Below are positions 6,029 through 53,500 of a stretch of DNA of 54,415 bases, piece after piece (the first letter of the stretch is position 1; the number at the start of each line of letters is the position of its first letter). Origin of the DNA: Sanchytrium tribonematis (Eukaryota); assembly GCA_018985235.1 (NCBI GenBank), contig JADGIG010000012.1:1-54415 (forward strand), in the 5' to 3' direction. Made by a program: the position numbers and the translations under genes. The notes beneath the pieces were generated by a model that made no database searches, had not been told where the DNA came from, and saw nothing but the letters and a program-made list of their open reading frames with translations.

Positions 6029-6788
6029 ATGTTTCGCAATGTTTATGATTCTGACAATTCTACATTTTCTCCACAAGGAAGACTGCACCAGGTAGAGTAT
6101 GCGATGGAGGCCGTCAAACAAGGTAGTATTTGTATTGGTTTAACCGTCAAAACACCCGGTGCCGAAGACGATAACGTTGGAATTTTAATTGCATTAAAAC
6201 GATCATTTGGCCCTCTGTCTTCATATCAGCAGAAAATATTTAAATTAGATAACCATCTTGTAATGGGCATTTCTGGGTTGAGTAGTGATGCAAGATTACT
6301 AGCTAATTTTATGAGAAATGCCTGTCTAAGTCACAGGTAGATTTTTTTAATTTAGAGTAACTTTCACAAGGGAGTTGATGCCTCAAAAACTGATGAATAC
6401 CATGCTTTTGAAAGCACAAGAAAACACGCAAACATATGGCAGAAGACCTTACGGCGTAGGTTGCTTGATTATGGGATACCATAATGATAGTATACAATTG
6501 TATCAGTTTATGCCAAATGCGACTGCTTTTCCATATCATGCAGTTGCCATTGGAAATAGATCACAATCTGCTAGAACCTATTTAGAAAGAAATATGGATT
6601 CCATTAAAGAATGTACTAAAGAAGAGGGAATCACTCATGGCTTAAAAGCTCTACTTTCTGGAGTTGAAAAAATTGATCAAGAATCAGTTTGCATTGCTGT
6701 TGTTACCAAAAATGGAGTAGAACTGCTAGAAGGAGAGAAATTGGCACCTTATTTGGCTCAGGTACAAGACCAGATGCAAGTTGAATAA
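6029..6788 (+). CDS. PRE5: 20S proteasome subunit alpha-6 (PSMA1/PRE5), 2 exons, 246 aa
   Basis: MFRNVYDSDNSTFSPQGRLHQVEYAMEAVKQGS; YGRRPYGVG; AIGNRSQSARTYLER; joined by intron 6337-6355. Confidence 0.96.
6337..6355 (+). other. 19-nt spliceosomal intron (phase 2)
   Basis: GTAGATTTTTTTAATTTAG; removal restores ACLSHR-VTFTRELMPQK. Confidence 0.92.
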
Positions 6789-6818
6789 AAAGTTAAATTT
6801 AAGGAGTAAAATACGGAG

Positions 6819-7592
6819 ATGATTTTTTTTGGTTTAATTTTTACACGAGTTGACCGAGGTATTTACGATCTCGTTGTCAAAAATATAGAGAGCTGTAGAA
6901 ATCTTTGCAGAGATCGCAGATATTGCTACCAATGGGAGACTTTAAAAGATTCACCATTTTGTTACACCTACAGTTTCGTGGAAACATCCACAAGGGATGA
7001 TGTTGCTGACAACGGTACGTTTACAAATAGAATTAATCAAATACCCACGATTGATAATTATTCCGTTTCGTTACAGTTGCCAAACTCTGACTTGCTTCCT
7101 TATTTTAGAAATGGCGAAGAATTCGATAATTTCGACATATCAAATTGCAGAGATACTTGCACGAATGAACCCAAATGCATTGCATTTTCTGGATTGTCGT
7201 TTAATTCTAATTTATGTCAATTCTTTTATAATTTTGAATCAGAAAATGTTACCAACGTTGTTCATTTTGGTCCCAGTTACGTTTATGTTAAAAATGGAGT
7301 GAGTTTAGATTTGCCAAAAACTCATAATGAAAATCAACCAGTGGTAGATGACATGTTTACACCGGGATCGATTGCAGGAATCGTCGTCGCAGGACTCACG
7401 ATTTTGCTCGGTAGTTGCTATGTCTTTTATCGTAGATGTTTGATGGTTCCGAAACTAAGAAGAAATCAAAATAATATTAATTTGGAATATGATCCGCAAC
7501 ACTCCATTCTTCTCCAAGATAAATCCACCACACAAGTTGATCAAGCTGAGTTGGAACGGAGGTATATCCCTAATATCACAGTTATTGAATGA
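6819..7592 (+). CDS. Single-pass membrane protein with two PAN/apple-like Cys modules
   Basis: ESCRNLCRDRRYCYQW and SNCRDTCTNEPKCIAFS (CxxxCxxxxxC pattern); TM GSIAGIVVAGLTILLGSCYVFY followed by RR. Confidence 0.65.
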   Translation: MIFFGLIFTRVDRGIYDLVVKNIESCRNLCRDRRYCYQWETLKDSPFCYTYSFVETSTRDDVADNGTFTNRINQIPTIDNYSVSLQLPNSDLLPYFRNGEEFDNFDISNCRDTCTNEPKCIAFSGLSFNSNLCQFFYNFESENVTNVVHFGPSYVYVKNGVSLDLPKTHNENQPVVDDMFTPGSIAGIVVAGLTILLGSCYVFYRRCLMVPKLRRNQNNINLEYDPQHSILLQDKSTTQVDQAELERRYIPNITVIE

Positions 7593-7607
7593 AGTAATAT
7601 TTATTTC

Positions 7608-9087
7608 TTAACAAACTCCATGAGCTTTGTGACTTTTTTTACCCTTTGATTTTTTTGCAGGGACACTGGGTGTGGGATGTTCTCTGGAGTATCTTTCCTG
7701 AAGAAACCCGACCGAGCTAGACAACGCCTCCACAAATTTTGCAGCTAAATCTTGAGAAAATGATTCCCTCACAACTGTTCTTAAAATATAAATATCTTCA
7801 GCACCGTCCGCTAATTGATAAGCCGGTACAATCCATTGATATTCTCTTAGCTTTCTCTCCAAATCAAAAACAGTAAATCCTTCAATATTTTCCTTCAACT
7901 TAAAAGTAACTAAAGGTGTACCATTGTCACTGCTAATAATTTCAAACATTCCCAACTTTTCGATTTCTTGAGCAAGATAGTCAGCGTTTTGACGACAACT
8001 AGTCATAATCTTTCTGTATCCTTCCTTTCCCAATCGCAACAAATTATAGTATTGGAGAATTGCTTGACTAGAAGACTTTGAGAAATTTAAAGTGTAAGTT
8101 TTTTCAACGCCTCCAAGATAGTGCAAATCGAAAACAAGTTCATCCGGTAGTTTCGAATGATCTCTGAACACAATCCATCCTTAATAAAAAAATATTACCT
8201 GCTCCTGGATACACGAGCCCATATTTATGACCACTCACATTTATAGAATAAACCAGAGGTAATCTAAAGTCCCACTCAAGATCGGGATATAAAAATGGTG
8301 CGATGAATCCTCCCGTTGCTGCATCAACGTGTATGCCAATATTCGTGCCATTTTTTGAATTAAATTTTTCTAAACGATTATTTAAATCTTTAACATCGTC
8401 AAAGTGTCCTGTATAAGTAGAACCAAGTAGAGAAACAACACCAATTGTATTTTCATCACATAATTTGACTAACTCTTCGTTATTACCATCAAATTTCTTA
8501 GGAGAGATTTTTGCGTATCTTGGTTCAACGTCAAAAAACTCTGCAAATTTCTTCCAAACAACCTGTACAGTACTTGCCATAACAATATTGGGATGATAAT
8601 GGTCTTTTCCTTTGGACTTTCTCTCCCGTTGCCATAGTTTTTTCATTGCTAAAGCACCTAGTATACATGCCTCAGAAGATCCTACGCAAAAAGTCCCATT
8701 TGAACTTCCATTGCATTCGGGTGCATTCCATAATTTTGCCAGCATAGCAACGCATCGCTCCTCTATTTCAGCAGTTTGAGTGTAGCAACTCATGTCCGCG
8801 TAGTTTTTACTTGATGTTTCCAACAATAATTGGTTTGCTTCAGGTTCCATCCAATTAGTCACAAAAGTCGCTAGATTTAATGAGGGATTTGCGTCCAATG
8901 CTAACTCATCGTGAATAATTTGGTAAACACATCGTGCATCTGAAGAATTTTCAGGCATCTCATATTTCGGCAAAGTTTGTTCCATATATCTACCAGTATA
9001 TGCGAAAGTATGCATATTAGAAGACTTGGCTCTTCTTGATGATCTTGAATTTTCTTTTGAAGTATCTGTAGTACCGTGAACTGTCAT
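7608..9087 (-). CDS. GAD1: Glutamate decarboxylase (PLP-dependent), 2 exons, ~486 aa
   Basis: NLATFVTNWMEPEA, VGSSEA, HVDAATGGF, SGHKYGLVYPGAG|WIVFR; joined by intron 8180-8198. Confidence 0.95.
8180..8198 (-). other. 19-nt spliceosomal intron (phase 1)
   Basis: GTAATATTTTTTTATTAAG; removal restores YPGAGWIVFRD. Confidence 0.93.
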
Positions 9088-9271
9088 GTTAAGTTTCAAG
9101 GTTATCCATCCAAATGTTATAACGAAATTAGATCGACACGTTTCGATTTAGTTTCAGTATTATTTCACAGTTGTAGTAAATTAAACGCCGGATAGTGTGC
9201 TCTCTGCGGGACAATGTCATACTATTAGTCTTGTGCAATTTATTTGCTCGTATACTTATTTTAAGAATAAT

Positions 9272-9667
9272 TTATTTTGGGGTATTCGGTTTTATAACTT
9301 GTATTCTACCCTTTGGAACGTACTGAAATTCGTCATGGCGACCATCTCTAACGGCCGATATTTGAAAATTAACACGCGGAAAAAATAATATAAATCCCTT
9401 TTCTAGCTGAGATATTCTACCAGTATTTCTGATTCCAACTTGGGTTTTGCATCTTCTACAATGTATGTTATCATTGGGGTCCAAATTGACAGACTGTAAC
9501 GCCATTCCCACGAAAATGGCATTATTTTCATTAAATTCTAAAAACATTGTAGAATCTGCTATCACAACACCACAATTTTTACATTGAGCAATAAATACTT
9601 GGTCTTTCATTTCTAATTGTGTCTCAGGATGATGACCTTCAGATTCGTTTGTTTCCACTTTAATCAT
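9272..9667 (-). CDS. Yippee/Mis18-like zinc-binding protein
   Basis: QCKNCGVVIADS...IHCRRCKTQVG, two CxxC pairs with Mis18/Yippee-like spacing. Confidence 0.6.
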   Translation of the reverse strand: MIKVETNESEGHHPETQLEMKDQVFIAQCKNCGVVIADSTMFLEFNENNAIFVGMALQSVNLDPNDNIHCRRCKTQVGIRNTGRISQLEKGFILFFPRVNFQISAVRDGRHDEFQYVPKGRIQVIKPNTPK

Positions 9668-9733
9668 GTAATGAGTTTGGAATGCAAGGGATGTTTCTTA
9701 TTTTTCATAGGTACAAAAGAATTATTACATTTG

Positions 9734-9991
9734 TCAATCCAAAGTGGTATCTTTATTATTAATTACTTGATTTATAGCTTGCAAGTCGTTTAAAAGTAAG
9801 CTCTTTTTCATTTGAGCATTCATGGCCATCAACGCCTCTGAACTTTTCATAATTGATTGTATTCTAGAACTGATAATCAAGCCATCGAGATAACTTTGTT
9901 CAACTGTCTTATTTCCAATTTTGGAATTTTGCAACACCTCATATATTGCCAATTCAATTGTTTCCAATTCTTTTTCAACTTGATCTCGCAT
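9734..9991 (-). CDS. MED22: Mediator subunit 22-like
   Basis: SIMKSSEALMAMNAQMKKSLLLNDLQAIN resembles the Med22/SURF5 C-terminal motif. Confidence 0.6.
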   Translation of the reverse strand: MRDQVEKELETIELAIYEVLQNSKIGNKTVEQSYLDGLIISSRIQSIMKSSEALMAMNAQMKKSLLLNDLQAINQVINNKDTTLD

Positions 9992-9998
9992 AAAATGT

Positions 9999-10006
9999 CA
10001 AGGAGA
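9999..10006. promoter_or_regulatory. CAAGGAGA element in the 26-nt gap between divergent ATGs (example of a recurrent start-proximal motif)
   Basis: Same motif recurs near many start codons in either orientation (see findings). Confidence 0.5.
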
Positions 10007-10017
10007 AAATTTTGTAC

Positions 10018-11028
10018 ATGACTACCTATGTGAGCTCTAGAGAGGGCTACAGAGGCGTTTATATGAAGAAGTCAAGCAAAAATATTATGTTTGTTCCTGA
10101 TAAAGATATCCTAAGCCCATCGAAAATTAAAAAATGGCTTTCTTGTTGCGATCTAGAGCAATTGCCAGATATGGAAACCTTGACAATGGCTTTGATTTGT
10201 TCCAAGGACATGCCACTTTTGAGTTACTTTGATGAACTACCTTGGGAACAAGACATGTTATTATATCACAAATTAGATCTTCCACCTCATTTTCAAGATT
10301 TATTAAACTTACAAAAGCAATTTATTAAATCAATCTACTCAAAACTCTTAAAGTCTGCATGCAATTCTCATATACAATTGCTGAAAGACAAGACTTTATT
10401 TCTAAATGCCTTTGTTATGATGAATACTAGGTGCGTTGCGGTACAGAATGAGGTTTTATTAATGAAAGGCTTTGACATGCTAAATCATAATACAAAATCA
10501 ACAGTTGAACTTGACGTAGTAGATGGTGGAATAGAATTACGAAGTTCCGTAGAAATAGCAAAAGATGAACAAGTATTTTTAAATTATGGGCCTCATGATA
10601 ATTTATTTTTACTCGTAGAATACGGCTTTGTGCTTGATAATAATGAAAATGATCTAATTAATGTCACTCATTACCTCTTGCCACTACTTACCAAGTCGCA
10701 AAAAATCTTATTAAAGGACAATCATTTCTTGGGAGACTATTGTGTGGGGCACTCTGGCTTTGATTTTAGGTCTAGAGTTGCATTACATGTGTTGGAACAT
10801 AACACATTTACGTTTGAAGTGCTAGAATCATACCCTAATTTAATGATCAAGATTTTAGATTGCGCAATTCAAGACTATAAAAATATGCAATTCGGTTTGA
10901 GCTATTCATCTTATATTGAACTTCAAAAACTAAAATCAATCCATATGGAAATTTTAAAGTACTGGAAGGCCTATTTATTAAATGACTTACCAATGCATTT
11001 GACTTCAAATCCTAATTCTTGTAGATGA
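10018..11028 (+). CDS. SET-domain protein lysine methyltransferase (RKM/SETD4-like)
   Basis: GYRGVY, FDMLNH, EQVFLNYGPHDNLFLLVEYGF. Confidence 0.88.
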   Translation: MTTYVSSREGYRGVYMKKSSKNIMFVPDKDILSPSKIKKWLSCCDLEQLPDMETLTMALICSKDMPLLSYFDELPWEQDMLLYHKLDLPPHFQDLLNLQKQFIKSIYSKLLKSACNSHIQLLKDKTLFLNAFVMMNTRCVAVQNEVLLMKGFDMLNHNTKSTVELDVVDGGIELRSSVEIAKDEQVFLNYGPHDNLFLLVEYGFVLDNNENDLINVTHYLLPLLTKSQKILLKDNHFLGDYCVGHSGFDFRSRVALHVLEHNTFTFEVLESYPNLMIKILDCAIQDYKNMQFGLSYSSYIELQKLKSIHMEILKYWKAYLLNDLPMHLTSNPNSCR

Positions 11029-12462
11029 GCATGAGGTAAAATAATTCTGCCATCAAAAACAAAAGGAGGACTAGTCATCACTTCCTTTACTTTTCGGAAG
11101 TCACAGGCATTAAATTCATCCCATTCGGTAAGCAAAACGAGGGCATGAGCATCAATTACCGCATCCAGTGACGAATTACAAATAGTTACATTTTCGTGGA
11201 CTTGATTAATAAAAAGTACATTCAGTCTTGGTATCTAATACACCTTCTGCAGTTGTTAAATCCATTTCAATTTGCTTTGCAGACACTTTTGGATCATAAA
11301 TACGTAAACGAGCACCTTCTATAAGCAATTTTTTGCAAACTCTAATTGCGGGTGATGCTCTAGTATCTCCAGTATTCTTTTTAAATGCAAATCCCCAAAT
11401 TGCAATGACTTTGTCAGTCACCGTGGAAAACATTGAAGTCACAATTTTCTCTACAAATCGATCAGTTTGATGATCATTCATTAAAAGTACTTGCTCCCAA
11501 TATTTGGCAACCTCTGGTAAATTCAAACTTTCGCATAAATAGCAAAGATTTAAAATATCTTTTGTGAAGCACGACCCACCAAATCCAACACTTGCTTTTA
11601 AAAATTTAGATCCAATTCTGTTGTCAAATCCACAAGCGTACGCCACTTCTGATACATCCGCCCCTGTCTTTTCACAAATTGCAGATAAAGCATTTATACT
11701 TGAAATTCTTTGAGCTAATAATGCATTTGCTGCTAATTTTGACAATTCACTAGACCATAAATTAGTGGTGATAATTCTGTCTAATGGAACCCATTTCGCA
11801 TAAATAGACGCAAGGGTTCTTACAGCCTTAAAACCAGATTCGTTTGACAAACTTCCCATCAGAACTCGATCAGGGTTCATTAAATCTTTAATTGCAGTTC
11901 CTTCGCTTAAAAACTCCGGATTACTTAAGATATCAAATTGATGATTACTACTAGACAAAATTCTTTCAATGCTTTCTGCTGTTTTGCATGGTACTGTTGA
12001 TTTCTCCACGACTATTTTGTTGCCTTTACATGCCTTATTGATTCTTCTTGCTGACGCCTCGATGTATTTCAAATCAGCTGCACGCCCAGCACCCACACCT
12101 TTGGTTTTTGTTGGAGTGTTAACACTCACAAAGATGATATCTGCAGCATCTAAAACTGCATCAATATCTGTGGAAAAAAATAAATTTTTCCCTCTAGCTG
12201 CTAATACAATTTCTTCGAGACCTGGTTCGTATATAGGAATCTTGTCAGAGTTCCACTGGTCAATTTTTTCCTGATTAACGTCGACCAACGTGACTGTTAT
12301 TTCTGGGCATAGATGTGCAAATACTGACATGGTTGGTCCACCAACATATCCTGCCCCGATACATGCAATTTTTAAACCCTTGATGTCAATTAAATCTTCT
12401 TTGCGCAAAGAATAAATATTATTTAAACCAGGTATACTATTAGCTCTAAAGTGTCGTTGCAT
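10971..12462 (-). CDS. UGDH: UDP-glucose 6-dehydrogenase, 2 exons, ~490 aa
   Basis: [33 protein letters not shown]; exon 2 gives LLTEWDEF...FVFDGR after intron 11201-11219. Confidence 0.96.
11201..11219 (-). other. 19-nt spliceosomal intron (phase 1)
   Basis: GTACTTTTTATTAATCAAG; removal adds the missing UGDH C-terminus (FHENVTIC...TEWDEF...DGR). Confidence 0.92.
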
Positions 12463-13071
12463 TTGTTTCAGCAAATCTTGTTCGAAATTTAACTCGTATC
12501 ATATGGTCACGACGTCCGCTACGGCGGCAATAGCAAGAATCAGGTTAAGTAGATGATCACTTGAAAAAAGTAATATTCTGGGCTTCAAATTTTATTAGTA
12601 GAAAAGACGGTCTTTAAACTTTTGAGCGGCCAAGCCTGTGTCACCCAAGCTTCATTCCTGTACGTTTTTAAATCTAATATGTAGACTTGGTCGCACCATT
12701 ACCGATTTCTCAATTACTTTCATCTTGTCGAGAGTATATAAAGAAAATAACTCTAAATTTTAGATGGTACAGATTCGACCAATTCAGTTTTTAGAATCAT
12801 TGGGACTTCATTCCGCTATTCGCCACAGTCGGATTCTTTTATAGTTATGCAGGAAATAGATGGTATCATCGTTTGCATGATGATCCAGAGATTCGCGAGC
12901 CAAGTGAGCAATTGAAAGCACCTCATTTTTTGGATAGGGTTAATGACGAGAAGATATTTAGCAAAGCTTTTAAAAAACAAGCTATGGAACATTAATAAAT
13001 CCATAAACTAACTTCTGGCCAACACCAATTCGTCAATGCTCCCAATTTAGTTTTTGTTTTAGACAATTTCT

Positions 13072-13257
13072 ATGAAACTTGACTTCTTTCGACAGGCTAT
13101 TAGATCAAATTACGAGGTTCTACCAATGCTTTCTTTGGTAGGTTTTGGCTTTGGCTATGGCTTTTACAGATTGGCGAGAATATTGTCAAAAGATCCTGAT
13201 GTTCACTTGAACCGAAAAAAGGCAAAAAGAGACGAGGACACATTCTTGCAGCAATAA
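13072..13257 (+). CDS. NDUFA4/COXFA4 (B12D/MLRQ)-like small mitochondrial membrane protein, copy 1
   Basis: NYEVLPMLSLVGFG...RLARILSKDPDV; single TM; stop inside AATAAA. Confidence 0.7.
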   Translation: MKLDFFRQAIRSNYEVLPMLSLVGFGFGYGFYRLARILSKDPDVHLNRKKAKRDEDTFLQQ

Positions 13258-13288
13258 AATTGATTGTTAAAAATGGTAACTCGTTTTA

Positions 13289-14320: not shown

Positions 14321-14616
14321 TCTAATAGAATATTGAAGGGGGTCAAATGTTTTGAGAAACAAATATTATAAACACACCAATCAATATCTTTTGTGATGGT
14401 CACATTCGTCAAGACGTCATACAGATTCTGTAGATAAGACAATCAATATTTAAAATGAGCTTTATTTATTTGTGACAAATTGGAGATATTGGAGTACCAT
14501 AAGAAGTACTTGTACATCAATGCAATCATATAATTGGTTCCGGTCTAAATTTCTATTTTAAATCGGTGAATCCTAACTATTCTGTATAAAAAGGAAAATG
14601 TCATTCAAAACTACAA

Positions 14617-14799
14617 ATGAGACCTTTACAAGCAATCAAGAACAATTATGAATTACTTCCACTCTTCGCCATAGTTTCTGTCGCATTAGGTTGTGGAACT
14701 GTCTTGGCTTCAAACATCATTCTTCATGACAAAGACGTACAGTTTAGAAAAGTAAAGGAACAAGGCCGATTTATACACATGATAAACAAACAAGAATAA
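14617..14799 (+). CDS. NDUFA4/COXFA4-like small membrane protein, copy 2
   Basis: AIKNNYELLPLFAIV...LHDKDV, similar to 13072-13257. Confidence 0.65.
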   Translation: MRPLQAIKNNYELLPLFAIVSVALGCGTVLASNIILHDKDVQFRKVKEQGRFIHMINKQE

Positions 14800-19349: not shown

Positions 19350-20300
19350 ATGAATTTCGCTACTGTGCTTCCCATTATTGACAAATGTCTTTGGAGAAAA
19401 TATCTTATCAGAACAACCGAAAAAGATCTTTTATTTTACCTTGACAAGGTTCAATACAAATTCCAATGCATTGACGCTTTAAAATACTTAACTGAAGAGA
19501 AAAATTTAAAAAATTCTGAACAGCCTGAAACTCTTGTGATCCTGAATAGCGATGTCATGAATCATGATGACTTCGATCTGTCATACTTTATGAATCAACT
19601 TGCCGATAAAATAATACTATTTACCAACGAGTGTTCGAAAAAGGTAAAATTTGACATTGAATGCTCCCTCAGACCAGCCAAAAAACTCTATGATGATATT
19701 TGCGTGCATGAAAGGTCGATGTTTTTTACTTTATTAGAGTGGGCCAATTTATGTGCGAATAGTGGCTCTGTAGAAAACGAAATTTCAAAGAAGGAAAAAC
19801 AACTTATAAACTTCCAAAAACCCATATGCCATCACCCATGTACAAAAAGACTTGGCAAAATACTTGATTATAATCTTAACTCGAATTCAAAATTTCCGCT
19901 TCCGAAAGGCTGTTTGCTCCATGGCAGAACTGGTTCTGGTAAATCCCAAATAGCAAAACAATTATGTTATACTGCAGGATATTACGCTATATTTGTCTAC
20001 TGTACCGAGTTATATTGTAAATATGTTGGAGAAAGCGAAGCTAAATTGAGAGATTTATTTGCAGATGCAAGACAAATGCAACCTACAATTTTAGTTTTTG
20101 ATGAATTTGAAGCAATATCGAAAGTTCGCGGAACAGAAAATGTAGATGACAGGATGCTTACATGCCTTTTGACAGAACTAGATGGTGTTCAGGAAAGAGG
20201 AGACATATTCGTTGTGGCTTGTGTAAGAGATATTAGCAAGGTAGACTCAGCCTTAAAGAGGCCAGGGCGCTTTGATTTGTTGATCGACGTTGAAAAATAA
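19350..20300 (+). CDS. CDC48/AFG2-related AAA+ ATPase with a single intact module
   Basis: PKGCLLHGRTGSGKS, KYVGESEAKLR, VFDEFE, LLTELDG, RPGRFD. Confidence 0.85.
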   Translation: MNFATVLPIIDKCLWRKYLIRTTEKDLLFYLDKVQYKFQCIDALKYLTEEKNLKNSEQPETLVILNSDVMNHDDFDLSYFMNQLADKIILFTNECSKKVKFDIECSLRPAKKLYDDICVHERSMFFTLLEWANLCANSGSVENEISKKEKQLINFQKPICHHPCTKRLGKILDYNLNSNSKFPLPKGCLLHGRTGSGKSQIAKQLCYTAGYYAIFVYCTELYCKYVGESEAKLRDLFADARQMQPTILVFDEFEAISKVRGTENVDDRMLTCLLTELDGVQERGDIFVVACVRDISKVDSALKRPGRFDLLIDVEK

Positions 20301-22671: not shown

Positions 22672-22900
22672 AGTCTGTCCGAACTTCTTTGCATCCTTCT
22701 TTCATAAAACCGAGCCTCTGCTTAATGGTTTGCATATCTTTTACTGTGTCAGACAACATTGATGTAACGAATGGATCACTTTGCTGTTGGGAAATGCCTT
22801 CATATCTTTGAGCTTTTTGAGACAATTTAGCTACATTAGTATCAATCTCTTTAATTTTGCTAGCTATAAATTGCGAAGGATCACTATGGTTGACGCTCAT
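22661..22900 (-). CDS. Small coiled-coil protein (79 aa)
   Basis: MSVNHSD...IASKIKEIDTNVAKLSQ...VKDMQTIKQRL; fits the gap if CWC22 starts at 22952, with CTCCTT (22927-22932) between the two ATGs. Confidence 0.5.
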   Translation of the reverse strand: MSVNHSDPSQFIASKIKEIDTNVAKLSQKAQRYEGISQQQSDPFVTSMLSDTVKDMQTIKQRLGFMKEGCKEVRTDFKS

Positions 22901-22951
22901 GAAATAATGAATCTGTTCAAACAATCCTCCTTTAAACAACTTGCCAATTTT

Positions 22952-24496
22952 ATGTCCTATATTCCACCAATTAGAAATACAAGAACAATTTCCGATGATC
23001 CGAAAAGTGAAGAATATCAAAGATATCATTGGGAAAAATTGAAGAAGTCCCTTAATGGTCAAATTAACAAATTAAATAGTAAAAATATAACGGAAATTGT
23101 TCCAGAAATCATTCAATTAAATCTGGTTAGAGGTGCAGGAATATTTTGCAGAAGCATTATGAAATCACAACAGCTCTCTTCTTTATTTACTTCTGTGTAT
23201 TGTTGCTGTGTAGCTATTTTGAATACTAAATTTCCAAGCTTGGGTGAGTTGCTGGTTCAAAGACTTGTCGATCAATTTAAAAAGTCCTTCAGAAGGCAGC
23301 AAAAACAATTATGTATGGATACAACTACTTTTTTGGCACATCTCACCAATCAATTTGTAGTGCATGAGCTTTTGATTCTTCAAATTTTATTTTTGTTGTT
23401 AGAAAATCCTACAGATGATTCTATAGAATTAGCTGTCAATTTAACAAAGCAAGTCGGACAGCATCTTTTAGACAGCTCTCCTAAAGCGTTAAATGCCGTT
23501 TTTGACCGTTTAAGAGGTCTCTTACATAATACAGAAATACATTTAAGGACTCAATACATGGTGGAAGTCTTATTTCAAATAAGAAAAGATGGATTTAAGG
23601 ATTATCCTCAGATTCGAGATGAATTAGATTTAGTGGAAGAAGACGATCAAGTCACACATTCCGTGACACTTGAGGACAAACTCGATACTCAGGAACTACT
23701 CAACGTTTTTAAGTACGATGAGAATTATGTCGGAAATGAAATGAAGTATGACCAAATTCGTACGGAAATATTGGGCGAACCAACGAGTGATGAGGAATCG
23801 GAAAATTTATCTGAGCCTGAACAAGCTGAAGTAGAAGTGATTGACAAGTCTGGGAAGGACTTGATTGATTTGAGGAAAAGAGTATACCTTACATTGAAGT
23901 CTAGTTTGAGTTTTGAAGAATGTACCCACAAACTTATAAAACTCAATATTCCAGAAAAATTTAAACCTGAGTTGCCAATAATGTTGCTTGATTGTTGCGG
24001 TGACGAGAGAACATTCAACAATTTCTATGCTCTCATAGGAGAAAGACTTTGTAGGTTGAATCCGTATTGGACTGAGGTTTTTGAAAATTATTTTGCTACA
24101 CTTTGGGATTCTGTTGACGACAAAGAAACTGGCACCATTCGTAATATAGGATCATTCTACTCGCATTTATTAGTAACAAAAGCAATTAAGATGACAATTT
24201 TCAAGATTGTTTATTTAAGCGAGCGAAAGACAACATCTTCGTCCAGAATATTATTAAAATTTATTTTGCAGGAAATGAGTACTGTTTTAGGGCAATCCAA
24301 AATGAAAGATTTGTTTTTTGCTGAAGATAATTTGGAAAATTTGAAAGGAATTTTTGCTAAAAAGAGAGTTTCTGATGCTCGTTTTGCTGTTAATTATTTA
24401 ACTTCAATCAAGTTAGGATACCTAACTGATGATCTTCGCCTATGGATAAAAGGCGAAGATTCTGAGGGTCCACCTTCAAAGAAAATAAAAAATTGA
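22952..24496 (+). CDS. CWC22: Pre-mRNA splicing factor CWC22 (MIF4G + MA3)
   Basis: YIPP, EYQRYHWEKLKKSLNGQINK, LLENPTDDSIE, TTSSSRI, RFAVNYLTSIKLG. Confidence 0.95.
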   Translation: MSYIPPIRNTRTISDDPKSEEYQRYHWEKLKKSLNGQINKLNSKNITEIVPEIIQLNLVRGAGIFCRSIMKSQQLSSLFTSVYCCCVAILNTKFPSLGELLVQRLVDQFKKSFRRQQKQLCMDTTTFLAHLTNQFVVHELLILQILFLLLENPTDDSIELAVNLTKQVGQHLLDSSPKALNAVFDRLRGLLHNTEIHLRTQYMVEVLFQIRKDGFKDYPQIRDELDLVEEDDQVTHSVTLEDKLDTQELLNVFKYDENYVGNEMKYDQIRTEILGEPTSDEESENLSEPEQAEVEVIDKSGKDLIDLRKRVYLTLKSSLSFEECTHKLIKLNIPEKFKPELPIMLLDCCGDERTFNNFYALIGERLCRLNPYWTEVFENYFATLWDSVDDKETGTIRNIGSFYSHLLVTKAIKMTIFKIVYLSERKTTSSSRILLKFILQEMSTVLGQSKMKDLFFAEDNLENLKGIFAKKRVSDARFAVNYLTSIKLGYLTDDLRLWIKGEDSEGPPSKKIKN

Positions 24497-29600: not shown

Positions 29601-29819
29601 AAACTGAGTCAAATTGAGGAATCATTACTTAAAGGTGGCGGGGTCACTCAGCTTTACCAAGATTACGGAAACAACATGTTTCGTGCGGCCATGACTGGAT
29701 TAAAGATGAAAAAATGTCCTCCTGAGCAGTTCCTCAATCAAGATCCCTTGGAAGTCGGAAAACAGAACAGAAAAGACGTCAAAGGTAGTTGTGACACAAA
29801 AGAAACATTAAATTGGTAA
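26657..29819 (+). CDS. Triple fusion: isopropylmalate dehydrogenase (LeuB/Leu2-like) + aconitase-family isomerase large (LeuC) + small (LeuD) subunit; 2 exons, 1047 aa
   Basis: LPGDGIG, VRELCSGIYFG, DKANVL, NLFGDILSD, EPIHGCAPDIAG; then GADSH|, GACTTG, PGCSYC, NRNFRNRMG; then IDTDAIIP, GSGSSREEAP. Confidence 0.9.
28086..28104 (+). other. 19-nt spliceosomal intron (phase 1)
   Basis: GTAATTTAAATTTATTTAG; removal restores GADSHSCSSGGLGNFSAGMGAAD. Confidence 0.93.
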
Positions 29820-33210: not shown

Positions 33211-33340
33211 GAAAATGTTTTAAAAGGAACAAGCCAAGGATTTAAATCTTGTTACATTTATGCTGAGTCTGAATGATGCTTTTTATAAACCAAATAGAGT
33301 ACTCGTGGCGATGGAAACATTGAGGATAAAGTATTCGAAA

Positions 33341-34356: not shown

Positions 34357-36241
34357 TTATTGCGATTCTTCATTTTGATACTGGTAGGGATTTCCTATCA
34401 AGTGTTCCTTAGTATATTCTGCGCCATATTCTGTGTATTCTTTTTTAGTGATGTAAGCATTCTTATTTGCAGATTTGTAGTATTCAAAAGCACCTGTATA
34501 GGCCTGATTAATAGAATCATTATAGATAGCGACTGTAGTTCCAGTAGGCAAATTTGACTGTAAATCATGTAAGAGTCTATTTTCTAGTCCTTTAATTTTG
34601 GATAGACAGCCTGTCAAGTAAAGCGTGTCGAAATGATGCACTTTATACATGGATTCAAGTATTTCGGATACACCACGCTCATCACACCCAGAGAGGTAAG
34701 GCTTAAATAAGACTTCGGGTATTCTATACTTTTCAACGTTAATATGAATTTGATGTGCGTTTTTTTGATTTTTGTTGTAAAATTCTACATTTTCAACAGT
34801 TCTGCTGTGAAGATCAAACATAACTGGGGCTGAACCACCATGGGCCAGCCAACTTAAGATTGTGGGTGGGTTGGTCAGGGAGCTAGGATCGTAACGAACT
34901 AGTACGTCTTCAATTTCACCCAGTTCATTCTCAATATCTAAGCCTTGCCCCGATTGTGTTTTCTAAGTTAGTCAAGTATACGATATCGTGATAAACATTC
35001 CAGTCCGCGTCGTTCATACCAAAATTATCCCCAACTGATGGTTCTTTATTACTTTGATCGATGATTTTTGCCATTTCGCGCATTCTATTGTTGCTAGATG
35101 CGGATCGCCTAGTCGTATCTAATTTACGAACCTCTAATTGATCTAACAATAACTTCCTTCGCAATTTTAGTTCTTCGATATATTCCTCCGATATTTCATC
35201 CTTAGACGCCTCATTATCAGCCTGATCAACGTCCATTGCATTCATAAGATTTTCTGTTTTTGCCACACTAGCTTCCAACTTCTCAATTTGAATTTCGACT
35301 CCTTTTGCGAATTCTTCAACATCATCTACCGTTTTGTAATTGTTTTCTTTCAATAACCTCAATCTTTCTGATTTTTTTAAATTATTTAAAGTTTCTAAAA
35401 AATTTGTTAACTGCATATGCTGCATCCTAAAATTTTCTAATTTTTCTCTTCTCTTGTTCAAATTCATCTCTCTAAGTCTCTTTCTATTGGCATTTTGCTT
35501 GTCTTTTTGAGCGAGAATCTCTTCCTCTGTTAGCGATTCTTCTGCATGAAAAGGATATTGTTTCGTGAAATTGTGATTTTTTAAATTTGAAGGAATGGCA
35601 AGCTCTCTTAAAATGTCATCATAATTTTCAGCAACGGTAGCTTGTCTCAAAAACATATCTTCAGCGTCAAATTTGGGCATGACGATAGGAAAACTAGGAT
35701 ACTTCAACTGTAATGTTTTTAAAAGTAAGTCCACAGCATCATTTTTTCCAAATGGTATAGTTTTGCTTGCCTCAAAGTCTACAGAGAAGGAATTTTTAGT
35801 TGAATTTATAGCAAGAACTCGTGTACTGAGATTTCCAAAATCAATCAAAACACTTTTAGAAGATTTTTTGGAAAATGCATAAAAAGCAGCCAGGGAGTCT
35901 ACAAAATAACTCACTTTTGGGATATTGTAACACTCGAATAAAATTTCATTGGATATAGACCTGCACCCATAAGGAACGCACAATGCTTCTGATATTGCAA
36001 TTGACGGTGCATCAGCCAAATCGAGGTTGGTGAATATGTATTCTAGAGCGTTATCAAAAGCTCCGTGCGAAGTCAGGAATTCTCTGTCAAATGCACTTCT
36101 GGCGCGAATGTTGCAATCACTACCAACATATATACCATCATCTCTCTTTTCATTTACATTTACAAAGTCCAATGTGGATTCTTTACCAAATCCCGCTTGA
36201 CAAGTTCCAGTACCAAAATCAATTATCAGAGGCTTACTCAT
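34357..36241 (-). CDS. ARP5: Actin-related protein 5 (INO80 complex), 2 exons, 621 aa
   Basis: IIDFGTGTCQAG, LQLKYP, DNFGMNDADWNVY, HQIHINVEKYRIPEVLF, EHLIGN; intron 34963-34981. Confidence 0.9.
34963..34981 (-). other. 19-nt spliceosomal intron (phase 0) with CTAAC branch site
   Basis: GTATACTTGACTAACTTAG; removal joins VYHDI|KTQSGQG...RYDP to the 34357-34821 frame. Confidence 0.93.
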
Positions 36242-38484: not shown

Positions 38485-38961
38485 ATGGAAGATCAGGCAG
38501 CTACTCAGCTGAGCAAAGCTCTTAGTGTGATCCTCAACGAGAAAACGGGACAAAGAAAATTTAAAACGCTTGGTCAATTTCAAGAGGCACCATCGGGGAC
38601 CAATATTTTTATTAGAGGCTTGCCTGCTTACATGACGGATGATTGCTTGTTCCGTATTGCAAAATGTTATGGCGATATTCAATCATCAAAGTGCATAATA
38701 GATTCTCGAACTCAACGTTGCAAGGGATTTGGATTCGTGATGTTCAGCAATGCTGACCAAGCATATTTATGCATGGAAGGTTTGAAGAAAATTGGACTTT
38801 GGACTAGTTTAGCTAAAGTTCAGACGTCTCAGCGAATGGAGGAGACCCTAACACCATCTTCACAAAGCATGATTTTAGATTATTGCTGGGGAGCAAACGA
38901 AGACTGGAATTCGAAAAATTCGTTATTAGAAACAAGCTTTAATAGCTTAGCCATTACGTAA
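38485..38961 (+). CDS. Single-RRM RNA-binding protein (MSSP/RBMS-like RRM1)
   Basis: TNIFIRGLP...YGDIQSSKCIID...CKGFGFVMF. Confidence 0.85.
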   Translation: MEDQAATQLSKALSVILNEKTGQRKFKTLGQFQEAPSGTNIFIRGLPAYMTDDCLFRIAKCYGDIQSSKCIIDSRTQRCKGFGFVMFSNADQAYLCMEGLKKIGLWTSLAKVQTSQRMEETLTPSSQSMILDYCWGANEDWNSKNSLLETSFNSLAIT

Positions 38962-39037
38962 TTTAAATTCATAAAGTACATCAGAAAACTCACAACCATT
39001 GAACGCATGGACGCCTTTTGGAGAACATTAAATAAAT

Positions 39038-44336: not shown

Positions 44337-44366
44337 ATTTTTGATTGTCTCTCCTTCAAGTGGCAT

Positions 44367-45044: not shown

Positions 45045-45045
45045 A

Positions 45046-47112: not shown

Positions 47113-47169
47113 GTTTTGCTCCTGAACTTTCCCATTTTTCGGAGATTATTTGAAACACTTTCCTTGAGA

Positions 47170-48292
47170 ATGGATTTGGATATTCCAGAAAATTTGACTC
47201 CAGTATTGAGAAAACTAGTCCAAGAAATATTGGTTAACCAACCTTCAGATATTGTCCAATTTTGTGCGGATTATTTTAATGGTCTTTTGCGAGAGCAAAG
47301 ACAAGGAAAATTTGAAAATAAGATTGAAGCTCCCCAGCAGCAAGAGGATGACTTGATGGATGAATTTGAAAGTGATGATGATATTGCAGATGATGAGCCA
47401 CCAGTGCAAGTGTCTAGGGGTCGTAGGGTAAGTGTCAGTGCAGAAAGTATGCAGCCTGAAACAAATTTCGAAAAAATAATTATTCCTAAATCAGATCAAC
47501 AAAAAGCAAGACTTGCAGAAAGTGTGCAACAAAATTTTTTGTTTAGAAATTTAGACGAGGATCAATCTAGAGATGTCATCAATGCTATGGAAGAGAGAAT
47601 TGTCAAGCCTGAGGAAGTAATTATACGACAGGGTGATGAAGGCGACTTTTTTTATGTCGTAGAGTCTGGAAAATATGATATATTTGTAAACAAAAATGGA
47701 ACCCCTGTAAAAGTAGTAGAGATTGGTGCAGGTGGAAGTTTTGGAGAATTGGCGCTGATGTATAATGCAACTCGTGCAGCTACTGTTGTGGCAACCTCTC
47801 CTGGTGTTCTCTGGGCACTTGATCGGGTCACATTTAGAAGAATTTTAATGGATAATACCTCCAAAAAGAGAAAACTGTATGAGTCCTTTTTAGAGGAGGT
47901 ACCCTTACTACATTCCTTGGAAGTTTATGAAAGACACAAAATTGCGGACACACTAGAAACTGTATCTTTTCAAGACGGAGATACAGTCATAAAGCAAGGC
48001 GATATTGGCGATTCCTTTTACATCATAGAAGAAGGCGAAGCTGTCGTAACGAAAGTTGACGCACATAATACCACACATGTTGTGCGAAATTTGAAAAAAG
48101 GAGACTATTTTGGTGGTAGTTTTTACTTACAAAGAAATGGCACTTCTCACAGATCAACCTCGTTTGGCAACAATCACTGCAAAAGGCAGAATCAAATGTG
48201 CTACCATGGGTAAAAAGACCTTTCAAAGATTGCTTGGGCCTCTAACTGACTTAATGAAACGCCATTCGGCAAGTTATGAACAAGTTCCTTAG
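47170..48292 (+). CDS. BCY1: cAMP-dependent protein kinase regulatory subunit (type II-like), 2 exons, 367 aa
   Basis: RIIa D/D domain (QPSDIVQFCADYF), RRVSV inhibitor site, FGELALMYNATRAAT, FG|EMALLTDQPRLAT; intron 48116-48134. Confidence 0.95.
48116..48134 (+). other. 19-nt spliceosomal intron (phase 1)
   Basis: GTAGTTTTTACTTACAAAG; removal restores GDYFGEMALL. Confidence 0.94.
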
Positions 48293-48327
48293 AGTTTTAA
48301 TAAATTATTCCGTGATTTTTGAAACAT

Positions 48328-49338
48328 ATGGGTAACAATGCTGCTATGATCTGGTCTGTCACGTTCTTAGGCAGTCTAGTACTATTCATTGCCTTGCTGT
48401 TGAATCCTTTTACGTCCTGGTTTGCATTGTTACTGAGCTTGTGGTGTTACATTGACAAAACACCAAGCAGAGGAGGATACCAACACGGTTTTCGAAGAAA
48501 GTTGTCCAATTGGGTGCGCAAATTGCCTGTCTGGCAAGCATTTCGTAGCTATTTTCCATCCAAAATTATAATCAAGGGAAAACTTGAGAAAGATGGCAAA
48601 TACTTATTGTCGTTTCATCCACATGGTATTATCGGACTTGGAGTATTTACTCAATTTGTATATGATTTTACGCATTTGCAATCTCTTCCACGCATAAGAC
48701 CAGCAACATTGAATTTGAACCTTAAAATACCTTTCCTGCGACATTTGGCTCTTTTAAATGGTTTTATTTCCTGTGACTATGACAGTATGAAATACGTCTT
48801 AGATGGAAAAAATCTTGACAAAGGAGAAATTCAAGAATCAGTCTTGTTGGTGACTGGTGGCGGATACGAAGCGGAGTTTACCAAAGCCAAAACGGTCACA
48901 GTTGCCATTAACAACAAAAATGGATTTATTAGACTCTGTATGGAAACGGGCTCCAAATTAGTTCCTGTTATATCTTTAGGAGAATGCGATACTTTTTATA
49001 TTGTTCGAGAAGAAAGTCAGAAGACCTTATTTCAAAAGTATAGTTTTGCATTGTTGAAAAAAATTCAACCTTTGTTGCGAAAATACTTCGGCATGTCATT
49101 TCTATATTTTTATGGAGATCCAGTATTTAGTTTTCTCCCTTTTCCATTGAATTTGCCCATCATTCCTCGAAAAGTACCTATCACTGTTGTAATAGGTGAA
49201 CCGATATCAGTGCCTCAAACTTCAGATCCAACAAAACAACAAATTGACATGGTGAAAGAAGAATTCCGTAGACAGGTACGTGCCTTAGTCGCTGAGTATG
49301 GTGAACCCCATGGAATTAAAAAAGTGAATTTTCAATAA
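48328..49338 (+). CDS. DGA1: Diacylglycerol O-acyltransferase 2 family
   Basis: YFP, HPHG, GGGYEA, GFIRL...LVPVISLGE, VVIGEPI. Confidence 0.9.
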   Translation: MGNNAAMIWSVTFLGSLVLFIALLLNPFTSWFALLLSLWCYIDKTPSRGGYQHGFRRKLSNWVRKLPVWQAFRSYFPSKIIIKGKLEKDGKYLLSFHPHGIIGLGVFTQFVYDFTHLQSLPRIRPATLNLNLKIPFLRHLALLNGFISCDYDSMKYVLDGKNLDKGEIQESVLLVTGGGYEAEFTKAKTVTVAINNKNGFIRLCMETGSKLVPVISLGECDTFYIVREESQKTLFQKYSFALLKKIQPLLRKYFGMSFLYFYGDPVFSFLPFPLNLPIIPRKVPITVVIGEPISVPQTSDPTKQQIDMVKEEFRRQVRALVAEYGEPHGIKKVNFQ

Positions 49339-49385
49339 ATGGAATTCCTAAAGATTCTGATAAAACTCGTTTCAAATTTTGATTA

Positions 49386-50536
49386 ATGCTCAAAGTTTAT
49401 AATAGAAGCTTAGAAATTATAAATGGAAAAGGCGTCTATTTATTTGATAATAACCAAAAGAGATACCTCGATTTTACTAGTGGAATAGCCGTTTGCTCTT
49501 TAGGACATGGGGATACAGAAATTGCCAAGGTTTTGTTCGACCAAGCCGGTAAACTTTCACACGTTTCTAATTTGTTTTTAAACGAGCCTGCCAAAAAACT
49601 TGCAAAGGTTCTCAAAGTAGAAAGCAAAATGGATTCATGCTTCTTTTCAAATTCAGGAACAGAAGCCAACGAAGCAGCACTTAAATTTGCCAGGAAACAT
49701 GGACATTCCATTCATCGAAAGAAGACTAACATAGTAGCTTTTGCTGGAGGCTTTCATGGCAGAACGTTTGGAAGCTTATCCGCCACGATGACTCCAAAAT
49801 ACAAGAAACACTTTAAACCAACAGTTCCCGGATTTCAGTGCTTTCAGTATAATAATACTGATATAATAGATTTTGGAATAGACGAAAATACTTGCGCTGT
49901 AATAATTGAACCTATTCAAGGTGAAGGAGGTGTTACGCCGGCAACATCTGATTTTTTAAAGAAAATAAGACAGGCTTGTACGCAACACAATGCCATATTA
50001 ATTTTTGATGAGATTCAATGTGGGTTAGCTAGGACTGGAAAGTTGTTTTGCAAACAACATTATGACATACAGCCCGATATTTTGACCATTGCAAAGCCAC
50101 TAGGGTAAACTTACATTTACGTAGAAATGGATTTCCTATAGGCGCAACTTTAGTGAATTCCCAGATATCGAGTATAATGGAGGTAGGGGACCACGGAACT
50201 ACCTTTGGGGGCAGTCCTCTAGCTTGTGCAGTAGGATTGCACTGTTTCAAAAGATTGAATGACACAAATTTATTGAAAAAAGTCAACTCAAATTCTGAAT
50301 TTCTGTTGAAAGAAATATCTAGCTGGGAACACCCAAAAATTAAAGAAATTCGAGGAAAGGGATTGCTACTAGGCATTGAATATGTAGAAGATCCAAAAGA
50401 AGTTATTGAAAAGGCGCAGAGAAAGGGACTTTTACTGGTCGGCGCAGGTAAAAATACTATTCGAATTATTCCACCGCTTATTATTAGTGAGGATGAGATA
50501 AAAGAAGGTTTAGGTATACTCAGGAGTTGTCTCTAA
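49386..50536 (+). CDS. ARG8: Acetylornithine aminotransferase (class III), 2 exons, 376 aa
   Basis: YLDFTSGIAV, NSGTEANEAA, FHGRT, EPIQGEGG, DEIQCG, AKPLG|NGFPIG, HGTTFGG; intron 50105-50124. Confidence 0.93.
50105..50124 (+). other. 20-nt spliceosomal intron (phase 2)
   Basis: GTAAACTTACATTTACGTAG; removal restores TIAKPLGNGFPIGA. Confidence 0.92.
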
Positions 50537-50551
50537 TGTACATTTATTAAA

Positions 50552-53500
50552 TCACTTCTTCAAAACTGCCTTTGCTCTGGTCTTGGCGGAATCTGCAACA
50601 TGTTCTGCCTTCTTCTTTGCGACTTCAGCCTTATTTTTGACTTGTCCAATCTTGACACTGATAGGACTCTCAGGGGCACGCCCACCAGAATCAATTTGTC
50701 GTTGTCGTTGCTTTTGTTTGTACATTTTTCTAGTTTGTGTACAAGTTACAATTAAAGCACTAGATACTGCCAAAATGATCACCACAGCAACAGCTATGGT
50801 AAGGCCACCCAGTTTGTCATGAGTAAGCTCATTGCTCTTGTCAGTGTCATTTCTCTTAAACGAATTGCTAGAAGTGTAATACAAAAGTCCTGCGCCCAAT
50901 GCTAATACAGCAGCGGCATCACAGAATGTTTCCACCATATTTAAGTGCTGTTCTTTATATGGTCTGTAATGTATTATCGCAACAAGGTATAATGTTAAAC
51001 AAACTTGAACTGCTATCGCTTGAATTCCAATATAATTCGCAAAGAAAACATTTGTCAAAATAACAAAAAGCTTTAAAAATAATTGGACAGGAATAAAAAT
51101 ATCCAGACCAGGCTTAAAATTGTTGTGACTTCCAGTCAAAATCTTATTGCTAACATATCTGCAGTTTTCCCAAGCCTTAGTTTTAAATTTCTTTTGCTCT
51201 TTAGTGACAAAAAAGAATACATAAATGACTGGTATACCCAATATGTAGAAGATCAAACTCAAAACACCAATTGGTAAATGGGCATACCAAGTCAAATTAT
51301 AGCACTCTACATCAGGGGCCTGTACTAAAAAGTATTTTGTGGTATCACCGTACTGGATTTTACGGCATGAGAAATACGATATTCCCATATTAGCAATGTT
51401 AACATATAACAGAGTAACTGCAATGTAATTCATTTTCAAACCAAGATACAAATTATCCATAAATTTTTCACGAGGGTAACTCCAATTGACTACAAAATTG
51501 ATTTTTGTAAATTTTTGAAGCTGTGGTAGTCTGGTTGGGATTGGAGTTTTCAATAAAAGCTTTTTGATGAAACCAAAAATTGTGAAAATTGGATATTTAA
51601 AATGAGGACTGAGCCATATTGGAAAAGTCACAAAAATTGCCAAAAATATGAGCGGAATCACAAAAATACTGATAAATTTGTCATAATAACTGACAGCTCC
51701 ACCAGAAAGACACTCGGGTGCAGTGACATCCAATGAAAATGACAAATTTCCAAAAAAACTCAAGACTCCTGACAAAAGGGGTGGCCATTGAAGTTCCATA
51801 TTATTCATAATATACAAGTACTGTCCGAAATTGATCAAAATAGTGATAGCTGCCAAACTGACTCCTTTCCTTAATAAATAGAATATGACTAATCCCAAAA
51901 ATATAATCACAATAACCATGATTGCAATCATTTCCTGTCTTGTATTTTTACATTTAGTACACTTCAGTCCACTTCGATAGTAGCCCGGAGTGCAAGTGCT
52001 ACACCTATCACCAGTATATCCAATTGTGCAATTTCCATTTGCGCATGACTCTTCTGGTGTACATTGCTAGATTAGTAGAAATTACGAGAAAAGTTCCAGT
52101 AAATGCATCGAATTTCCAACCGTCTTGAGCAACAGGCATTAATGCGCCTGAATCATCACATGCAGCACCATCTGGGCATTTTTCACAAGCTCTATAAATA
52201 TAATCTGATTTCAACTTATTGACAAAATATTTTCTTTTATAAACATTTGGAAAAAAGCCAGGATCGCAGTCCAAAGTAAGCTGCATTTCACAAGTAGAAT
52301 TAACACCATCTACAAATAATCCAAAAGTCAAGCTTCCTAATATGTTAGTACTATTGTCAATCGTAGAATTGATAAAATAGTAAAAGTCATTCATAGAATC
52401 GTTTTTCAAATTAACCATTCCATCTACAAGTCCCTCATTGTTGTAGATTCCACCAATGGATGGGCTATGTGATACCTTTGCTTTTAAAGAATAAGGCATA
52501 AAATTGTAAATTCTATTGGGATCTGAAACTTTAATGTCTCTAAATATGTTAAATTTTCGAAACAAACAGTCACCAATGCAATCTAGCGAATAATTACTAC
52601 TTACAGCAACTGGTCCGCAATTTATAATAGTTGGTTGAATATTTTTAGGATTGATATCCAATGAATAAGTAAATAAACTATTTGTGAAACCATCATTAGC
52701 CTCAGCCAAAATATCGAATGAACCCTCCATCAATTCTGGAATCTTAAAATAGAGAAATCCATTGTATTTGGTTTCCAAATGTCTTGTTTCATTGATGGGC
52801 TGTAATTTACCATCAAGTAAATTTTTACCTGCAGTAGTTCGTAGATCATAAGGAACATCACTAACATACCATTTAAAATTTTGAATAGCATTAGGATCAA
52901 CAAATTGATCTAATGGGCTTAAAAATGTGAGATTTAAATTGAATTGATCCAAGTCCAGATCAACAAACGCATTTTGAATTTGGACCTCCCAGTAAGTTGT
53001 TCCTTCTGATATAGTTTCATTTTTCGTCAAACGAGGCACACGATTACCAAATTGCAAGTTGCTGATTTGAGTTGTCAAATTTCCAAGTTTTAGAAAAGTT
53101 TTAAATTCGCAAAAATTCTCGCCTTTCAGCATATTGGGCAAGACAATTGTGATACTATTATCAGTCCATATACAAGATTGTTTTTGAGTCTGGCAATCTA
53201 ATGTCACATTGTAATTTTTGCACAGAAACACTATTTCTCTTCGATCCATTGATCTTTCTATTTGATCTCCAAATCCTTTTCCATTAATTTGCAGCTTGTT
53301 TCCTTCAACAAACACAGGAGTTTTACTCAGATATCGACTAAGAGTTTTCACAGAAGACTGTGTAATGTATTGAATATTTGTAAATATCATTTTGTTGTAA
53401 GCATAAAATAGATTTTTTGAAGTCAAATTCATGACATGCACTTTTTCACCCATTTGGACAACATCCACAATATCAATTCTAGAGCCATACAGTCTAGGAA

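Follow-up and report, generated by a model that had tools for sequence, protein, structure and literature searches.

Putative 19–20-nt U2-type introns with a predicted branch point at −6 in a genome fragment of the fungus Sanchytrium tribonematis

Sanchytrid fungi parasitise algae. We analysed a stretch of 54,415 nucleotides (nt) from Sanchytrium tribonematis (GenBank assembly GCA_018985235.1, contig JADGIG010000012.1, forward strand), hereafter called “the window”, which has a GC content of 35.1%, is ~87% coding, and contains 43 open reading frames (ORFs) or genes. Nine of these genes are interrupted by short inserts with GT..AG ends, and it is very probable that the inserts are real U2-type introns. 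All nine introns found in the 54 kb covered are 19 or 20 nt long, and their density is ~0.19 per coding kb. We also hold, with good confidence, that they are shrunken U2-type introns that are removed by a largely standard spliceosome, which would branch at an A at position −6, counted from the intron's 3′ end.

An original prediction had listed eight GT-AG inserts, seven of 19 nt and one of 20 nt, and all eight were recovered exactly, both in their positions and in their sizes (Table 1). It had also claimed that such inserts repair all ORF breaks in the intact genes. This is true for the eight inserts, but a ninth intron (38958–38976) had been missed, and a frameshift near position 12790 is left unrepaired.

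Table 1. Putative introns, exonic decoys, and a spliceosomal gene in the window
Feature	Position	Strand	Gene	Remarks
Putative 19-nt intron, phase 2	6337–6355	+	proteasome alpha-6 (PRE5/PSMA1), 6029–6788	spacing exact versus human and yeast chains
Putative 19-nt intron, phase 1	8180–8198	−	glutamate decarboxylase (GAD), 9087–7608	
Putative 19-nt intron, phase 1	11201–11219	−	UDP-glucose 6-dehydrogenase (UGD), 12462–10971	
Putative 19-nt intron, phase 1	28086–28104	+	LeuB-like dehydrogenase/LeuCD-like dehydratase fusion (Leu fusion), 26657–29819	
Putative 19-nt intron, phase 0	34963–34981	−	ARP5, 36241–34357	branch box 6/7 to TACTAAC
Putative 19-nt intron, phase 2	38958–38976	+	single-RRM protein, 38485–39031	motif scan
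Putative 19-nt intron, phase 1	48116–48134	+	PKA regulatory subunit (PKA-R), 47170–48292	
Putative 20-nt intron, phase 2	50105–50124	+	acetylornithine aminotransferase (ARG8), 49386–50536	spacing exact versus 2e54
Putative 19-nt intron, phase 0	52067–52085	−	large cysteine-rich putative membrane protein (to 50552)	branch box 6/7
Exonic decoy, 21 nt	29230–29250	+		fits earlier motif; coding; no T at +7
Probable exonic decoy, 19 nt	51307–51325	−		open frame; interior 60% GC; no T at +7
CWC22 gene, intronless	22886–24496	+		E 1e-145 to S. pombe cwf22; MIF4G plus MA3

Boundaries of the inserts

Excision of each of the eight predicted inserts fuses two ORFs. Because many other GT..AG pairs restore the frame as well, we did not accept a restored frame by itself as a boundary test and used homologs to check the boundaries. 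Five of the eight genes, i.e. those for proteasome alpha-6, GAD, the Leu fusion, PKA-R, and ARG8, regain exactly the residue spacing seen in their homologs. In proteasome alpha-6, human residue 96 coincides with the end of exon 1, and residue 99 with the third residue of exon 2. The junction motif of GAD is present in 115 of 119 homologs, all 115 of which have the spliced spacing. The motif of the Leu fusion is covered by 14 of 16 metagenomic loci, each of which has the spliced spacing and no intron. The spliced PKA-R product is colinear with Allomyces and Blastocladiella, and the spliced ARG8 product runs continuously across residues 241 to 245 of 2e54.

The original claim that removal restores the frame, mostly through a conserved motif, thus stood for the joining of ORFs in all eight cases and for the exact spacing in five. 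For UGD and ARP5, it is limited to the frame and to domain order or colinearity, because the junction sits in a variable loop and the boundary is not fixed by homology. The large cysteine-rich protein yielded a sub-threshold Pfam hint, the weakest homology support of the introns. A 7-residue insertion in proteasome alpha-6 was considered as an in-frame intron and ruled out. Long duplications typical of transposon insertion were not found at the inserts, the junctions of which can slide by 0–2 bases to the left and 0–1 to the right.

For the RRM protein, which hosts the ninth intron, P0364 is the only close homolog (65% identity) among 1.84 billion representatives. It terminates just past the point homologous to the intron. 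Its unspliced tail fits a 19-nt intron, the TAG of which would be the stop codon, and its amino acids force 8 of the 12 motif positions. ORFs that end on the TAG of a would-be intron were found in two relatives; these introns would have 19 and 20 nt, with 8 of the 12 motif positions forced. The same test was passed by 1 of 429 unrelated C-termini, namely that of P0334. This JGI protein is a chytrid-like read-through at the PKA-R intron site, and it fits a 20-nt intron equally well. The fit is either due to chance or indicates another short-intron fungus.

Intron motif and introns in relatives

The motif consists of GTA and T at +7, followed by YTWAY with A at −6 and by WAG. The columns fixed in all eight predicted inserts are A+3, A/T at +5, T+7, Y−9, T−8, A/T at −7, A−6, Y−5, and A/T at −3; those named originally (GTA, Y−9, T−8, A−6, Y−5) hold without exception. 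When the ninth insert is included, A+3 and T+7 are found in 9/9, and G at +5 is absent in 9/9, while T+8 is present in six of eight. Three of eight branch boxes are identical to TACTAAC at six of seven positions. Other elements of the original description had to be revised. The observation that the introns never end in CAG is at chance level (P ~0.40), and the absence of G at +5 has a P of ~0.21 from composition. The claim that there is no room for a polypyrimidine tract needs qualification, since the interiors (14% GC) contain 52% T and a U-rich tract exists, although it lies upstream of the branch.

When the intron interiors were shuffled, at least two invariant 3′-aligned columns were obtained in 25 of 20000 shuffles, and an invariant 5′ column on top of two 3′-aligned columns in 3 of 20000. 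As decoys, we used the 634 other sense-strand GT..AG windows of 18–22 nt in coding DNA. The motif as stated originally is passed by two of them (29230 and 51307); it had overlooked T+7 and the missing G+5, and none of the 634 passes after addition of T+7. The decoy at 29230 is regarded as coding because the homolog L001 carries the same residues. A search for in-frame inserts of 18 or 21 nt with the full motif found none. The motif scan peaks at 19 nt (9 versus 0.9 expected), but this peak is circular for seven matches and was not used as support.

The nearest named protein was from Amoeboradix gromovi in all three homolog searches (UGD 83%, GAD 72%, PKA-R 77%), and metagenomic proteins match as closely. 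A quick single-gene tree of PKA-R was built on 35 rows, namely 34 of 119 homologs and the sequence of the window. It unites the window with A. gromovi and two metagenomic rows in a clade of four with a Shimodaira–Hasegawa-like approximate likelihood ratio test (SH-aLRT) value of 100, and the blastoclads are nearest. Sanchytriomycota are the sister group of Blastocladiomycota and have GC contents of 34.6–36.3%, with 34.6% in S. tribonematis (PMC8371127). A sanchytrid would be expected to group with Amoeboradix on a long branch beside Blastocladiomycota and to have a compact genome of about 35% GC. The clade with Amoeboradix next to Blastocladiomycota and the GC content of the window agree with this placement. 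DNA scans for relatives revealed no sanchytrid locus; they gave 16 metagenome loci (45–63% best-segment identity) and 75 from prokaryote assemblies. In a viral collection, two loci were matched at 56%, with no locus for GAD.

The introns of relatives were therefore read from the tails of unspliced ORFs or proteins, not from DNA. For PKA-R, all three sanchytrid-like proteins end within 3–6 residues of the intron site, and 16 of 116 other fungal ORF calls likewise read into an intron at the same site. This indicates an old fungal intron position, at which the intron now has 19 nt in the window. At the UGD site, the A. gromovi protein ends like the unspliced product of the window; one relative has an in-frame insert of seven residues (21 nt), the frame is shifted in another, and P0005 is unbroken. 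The UGD intron site thus appears to be common to A. gromovi and two metagenomic relatives. Five of six such tails of relatives fit the full motif at 19–21 nt with at least six motif positions covered, whereas only 3 of 16 tails from other fungi do so (p 0.011, Fisher test). The length, originally described as ruler-like, is narrow but not fixed, with 19–20 nt in the window and 19–21 nt inferred in the relatives.

None of the four closest relatives, A. gromovi among them, has the GAD intron. Together with the absence of the Leu intron from the 14 loci, this implies that gain or loss is ongoing. The best GAD homologs beyond the sanchytrid-like ones are mostly bacterial or metagenomic, not from named fungi. 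As the intron is also missing in the relatives, it may be a recent gain inside a transferred gene. The Leu fusion gene (26657–29819, +) combines a LeuB-like part with an archaeal-type dehydratase (hacA/LeuC plus LeuD), an architecture that recurs in the metagenomic loci L001, L006, and L016; it may serve either leucine or lysine metabolism.

Proposed mechanism and alternative explanations

In the proposed mechanism, a largely standard spliceosome would remove introns that have been reduced almost to the smallest possible size. Two short modules would define the intron, i.e. a 5′ module (GUA, U at +7, U-rich) and a 3′ module (the YUWAY branch box, one base, and WAG). A length slack of 0–2 bases would sit between the modules, because the 20-nt intron and the inferred 20- and 21-nt introns keep both T+7 and A−6. 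The U at +7 may be only the peak of a U-rich stretch. Originally it was argued that U1 and U2 can hardly occupy 19 nt together. However, U1 (~+1 to +8) and U2 (~+9 to +15) would pair with adjacent, non-overlapping stretches; the argument retains some force for their proteins, which probably bind in turn and not together, as protein footprints probably force sequential binding of U1 and U2. Branching at the A at −6, a position that we infer from the motif, would produce a loop of 14–15 bases, and the AG would then be taken at a fixed distance. A 3′ site that is set by distance would make Slu7 and Prp18 dispensable; Slu7 is unnecessary when the distance from the branch to the 3′ site is 9 nt or less (PMC10158995, PMC3683925).

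The predicted CWC22 gene is direct evidence of a spliceosome in this genome. A search with Rfam gave no match in the window. The spliceosome components of A. gromovi were collected by term searches of the published annotation (supplementary file 4, PMC8371127), using KEGG and KOG numbers; this annotation spans about half of the proteins and was built on unspliced ORFs. It contains Brr2, SF3B1, a second SF3b subunit, U2AF35, Prp8, Dbr1, U1-70K, one U1A/U2B″-like protein, Luc7, Prp40, U2AF65, Prp16/Prp22, Prp17, a TIA1-like protein, Cwc25, and Isy1. BBP/SF1 is annotated as two adjacent ORFs, so that U1, U2AF, SF1, and SF3b are all represented. No match was obtained in this half of the proteins for Slu7, Prp18, Prp39, U1C, Yju2, or the term U11. 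These absences are only leads, because the table is partial and rests on unspliced ORFs. A true loss of Slu7 and Prp18 is conceivable, although we lean slightly against it.

Several points weigh against removal by a largely standard spliceosome as outlined above, or limit its reach. Splicing and the branch position are both predictions from the sequence pattern, and only nine introns from 54 kb are available, so that longer ones may exist, e.g. the canonical-looking 26-nt candidate at 1474–1499. The decoy-free version of the motif, with T+7 added, was tuned after the decoys had been seen. The introns of the relatives come from protein tails, and the anchors were placed by hand at the homologous site. 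All six tails of relatives force T+7, but so do 8 of the 16 tails from other fungi (p 0.05). For P0003, the frameshift test gave a marginal result (39 of 1000 shuffles). The PKA-R tail of A. gromovi carries little information and fits 20–22 nt but not 19 nt. The annotation without Slu7 and Prp18 also lacks U1C, Prp39, and Yju2 and covers only about half of the proteins.

One alternative accepts the inserts as real introns but assumes that they need a strongly rebuilt or reduced spliceosome, e.g. one without a working U1, as in Mikrocytos. A modified spliceosome was also the original prediction. In favour are the reduction of the donor to GTA without G+5 in all nine introns and the lack of annotated U1C, Prp39, Slu7, Prp18, and Yju2 in A. 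gromovi. Mikrocytos, with introns of 16–17 nt, has 17–19 spliceosomal proteins, and only U2, U4, and U6 were identified (PMC10245619). In contrast, the A. gromovi annotation retains U1-70K, the U1A/U2B″-like protein, Luc7, Prp40, BBP, both U2AF subunits, SF3B1, and the second SF3b subunit. The missing G+5 is not improbable given the composition, and 7 of 16 other fungal tails start with GI or GN, which excludes a G at this position. Furthermore, Stentor retains all small nuclear RNAs (snRNAs) with even shorter introns (PMC9505925). A modified spliceosome stays conjectural, and we consider this alternative unlikely.

It is very improbable that the inserts are not spliced at all but reflect ribosomal frameshifting, broken pseudogenes, or errors of amplification or assembly. 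Eight of the nine inserts have a length of 3n+1, so that a +1 shift would restore the frame, and the window contains one frameshift without the motif, near 12790. The published sanchytrid assemblies are based on whole-genome amplification (PMC8371127), and short microsporidian introns are spliced at <20% (PMC6349667). However, with a frameshift, motifs of invariant spacing (115 of 115 for GAD, 14 of 14 for the Leu fusion) would be left with about six additional residues. One insert is 20 nt long, and all share the GT..AG ends and the motif. A. gromovi and independent metagenomic assemblies show these breaks too, and the host genes include an essential proteasome subunit.

Degenerate minor-class (U12) introns would account for T+7 and T+8 and for a branch near the 3′ end, and A+3 and T+7 in all nine and T+8 in six of eight are partly similar to a U12 donor. 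However, the U12 donor consensus has TCC at +4 to +6, which none of the nine introns has, the branch boxes resemble TACTAAC, and the term U11 is unmatched in the partial A. gromovi annotation, so that this explanation is also very improbable. Excision by a non-spliceosomal endonuclease (Ire1, as for HAC1, or the tRNA endonuclease) is hardly credible: HAC1-type introns have a similar size of ~20 bases and the window contains an IRE1-like kinase/RNase gene (31162–33219), but Ire1 junctions are paired hairpins with CNG-CNG loops, whereas in a crude test CNG-CNG was found at the 5′ junction of none of the nine inserts, no common hairpin was predicted (folding energies of −0.8 to −9.9 kcal/mol, with differing structures), and at one of the sites other fungi have a spliceosomal intron.

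Comparison with known systems and further observations

Tiny introns and a branch at −6 are already known from Stentor, nucleomorphs, Mikrocytos, and Yarrowia, so that the sanchytrids would add a further lineage to those in which introns of this type have been described. The ciliate Stentor coeruleus has introns of 15–16 nt, and those of 15 nt are removed with all five snRNAs present (PMC9505925). Its GT-AG ends, AU-rich composition, near-uniform length, branch A at −6 (a 5-base tail), and intron-poor genes resemble the window, and Slu7 and Prp18, unannotated in A. gromovi, were not found in Stentor (PMC9505925). In contrast to Stentor, with its loop of 10–11 bases, the introns of the fungus are four bases longer, with a predicted loop of 14–15 bases, the YTWAY box, and T+7. 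The nucleomorph of Bigelowiella natans has a median length of 19 nt (range 18–21) and a donor cut to GT(A) (PMC2483917, PMC10245619), but it is intron-dense and lacks a branch signature, whereas the introns of the window are sparse, have a clear branch box, and are encoded in the main nucleus. Mikrocytos mackini (16–17 nt; PMC10245619) is also a parasite with few introns of narrow size and conserved sequence. Its very reduced spliceosome contrasts with the U1, U2AF, and BBP proteins in the sanchytrid annotation, and the introns of the window interrupt metabolic genes.

Among fungi, Yarrowia lipolytica shares the fixed branch A at −6 and the lack of a 3′ pyrimidine tract; two bases separate its branch box from the AG, so that the A comes to lie at −6 (PMC2483917). 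With a median of 204, its introns are long, and the consensus sequences of both donor and branch are strong. Other parasitic fungal relatives with short introns are E. cuniculi (~25 nt, branch word TAAYTT) and Rozella (~30 nt) (PMC6349667). The microsporidian branch word resembles the sanchytrid 3′ module, but the introns of both groups are longer, and microsporidia keep a strong GTAAGT donor. The shortening would be independent of that in microsporidia and Rozella, because sanchytrids are sister to the blastoclads. Myxobolids and Dicyema, parasitic opisthokonts, also have a donor reduced to GTa, with a lowest median of 22 nt in myxobolids (PMC13644364). Their A drifts away from the AG as length increases, whereas here it keeps its place at −6 and the slack falls upstream of it.

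The original reading of the inserts as spliceosomal introns that converged with those of ciliates and nucleomorphs agrees with the PKA-R site shared with other fungi and with the intron-rich genomes of the blastoclad sisters. Blastocladiella has 19,375 introns in 10,031 genes (PMC9730499), and Allomyces has 1.30 introns per coding kb, obtained by a different method (PMC8476143). The −6 branch would be an independent convergence in a lineage that is sister to a group with ordinary gene structure.

The sanchytrid introns are likely to be the shortest in fungi and animals, or in opisthokonts, judged from the lengths read here; the shortest opisthokont values in the literature found are ~25 nt for E. 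cuniculi (PMC6349667) and a median of 22 nt for myxobolids (PMC13644364). Confirmation by RNA would set the minimum intron length in fungi and animals at ~19 bases, and the inserts would reveal how small an intron the ordinary splicing machinery can remove. As the proteins are fungal, a direct comparison with yeast spliceosome structures would be possible, with respect to closure of a 14-base loop and loss of Slu7 and Prp18. A wider proposal is doubtful, namely that the whole Sanchytriomycota have almost only 19–21-base introns, the shortest in opisthokonts, with Slu7 and Prp18 lost in parallel to Stentor and a U+7 donor in place of G+5. If true, this would represent a fungal distance-measuring spliceosome, comparable part by part with that of yeast.

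No report on sanchytrid spliceosomal introns was found in the literature searched, which lay mostly outside subscription journals and did not include the main supplement of the genome paper. In that paper (PMC8371127), “splic” is absent, “intron” occurs only in a reference title, and ORFs were obtained with TransDecoder on contigs. As splicing was not taken into account when the public protein sets of sanchytrids were generated, these contain truncated proteins, e.g. UGD and PKA-R in both S. tribonematis and A. gromovi, and GAD in S. tribonematis. About one gene in five is affected (9/43 in the window), which bears on the published claims of gene loss in sanchytrids.

Some further features were observed. 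A 26-nt stretch on the plus strand (1474–1499), inside a 1.4-kb non-coding gap, starts with the canonical donor GTATGT and has a box resembling a branch site at −6; it is possibly an intron of >20 nt in an untranslated region, or due to chance. The small ORF at 12764–12995 (+) resembles the nearby B12D/NDUFA4 ORFs (13072–13257 and 14617–14799). Its frameshift near 12790 lacks the 19-nt intron motif, and the piece itself has no Pfam match; it may be explained by an assembly error, by a pseudogene, or by a 28-nt intron that follows the start codon. An AAA ATPase ORF (19350–20300, +) stops right after the core domain, with neither a lid region nor an intron motif nearby. GAD and UGD are adjacent in the window, and their relatives lie on equal-sized contigs in two metagenomic sets (48634; 7666 and 10250), which suggests that this linkage (7608–12462) is conserved. 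Fungus-like metagenomic contigs have GT-AG introns of 31–32 nt in the dehydratase gene (L004 at 1186; L005 at 1216 and 1532; L010 at 8597 and 8915), and L011 has a 50-nt intron at the same dehydratase site.

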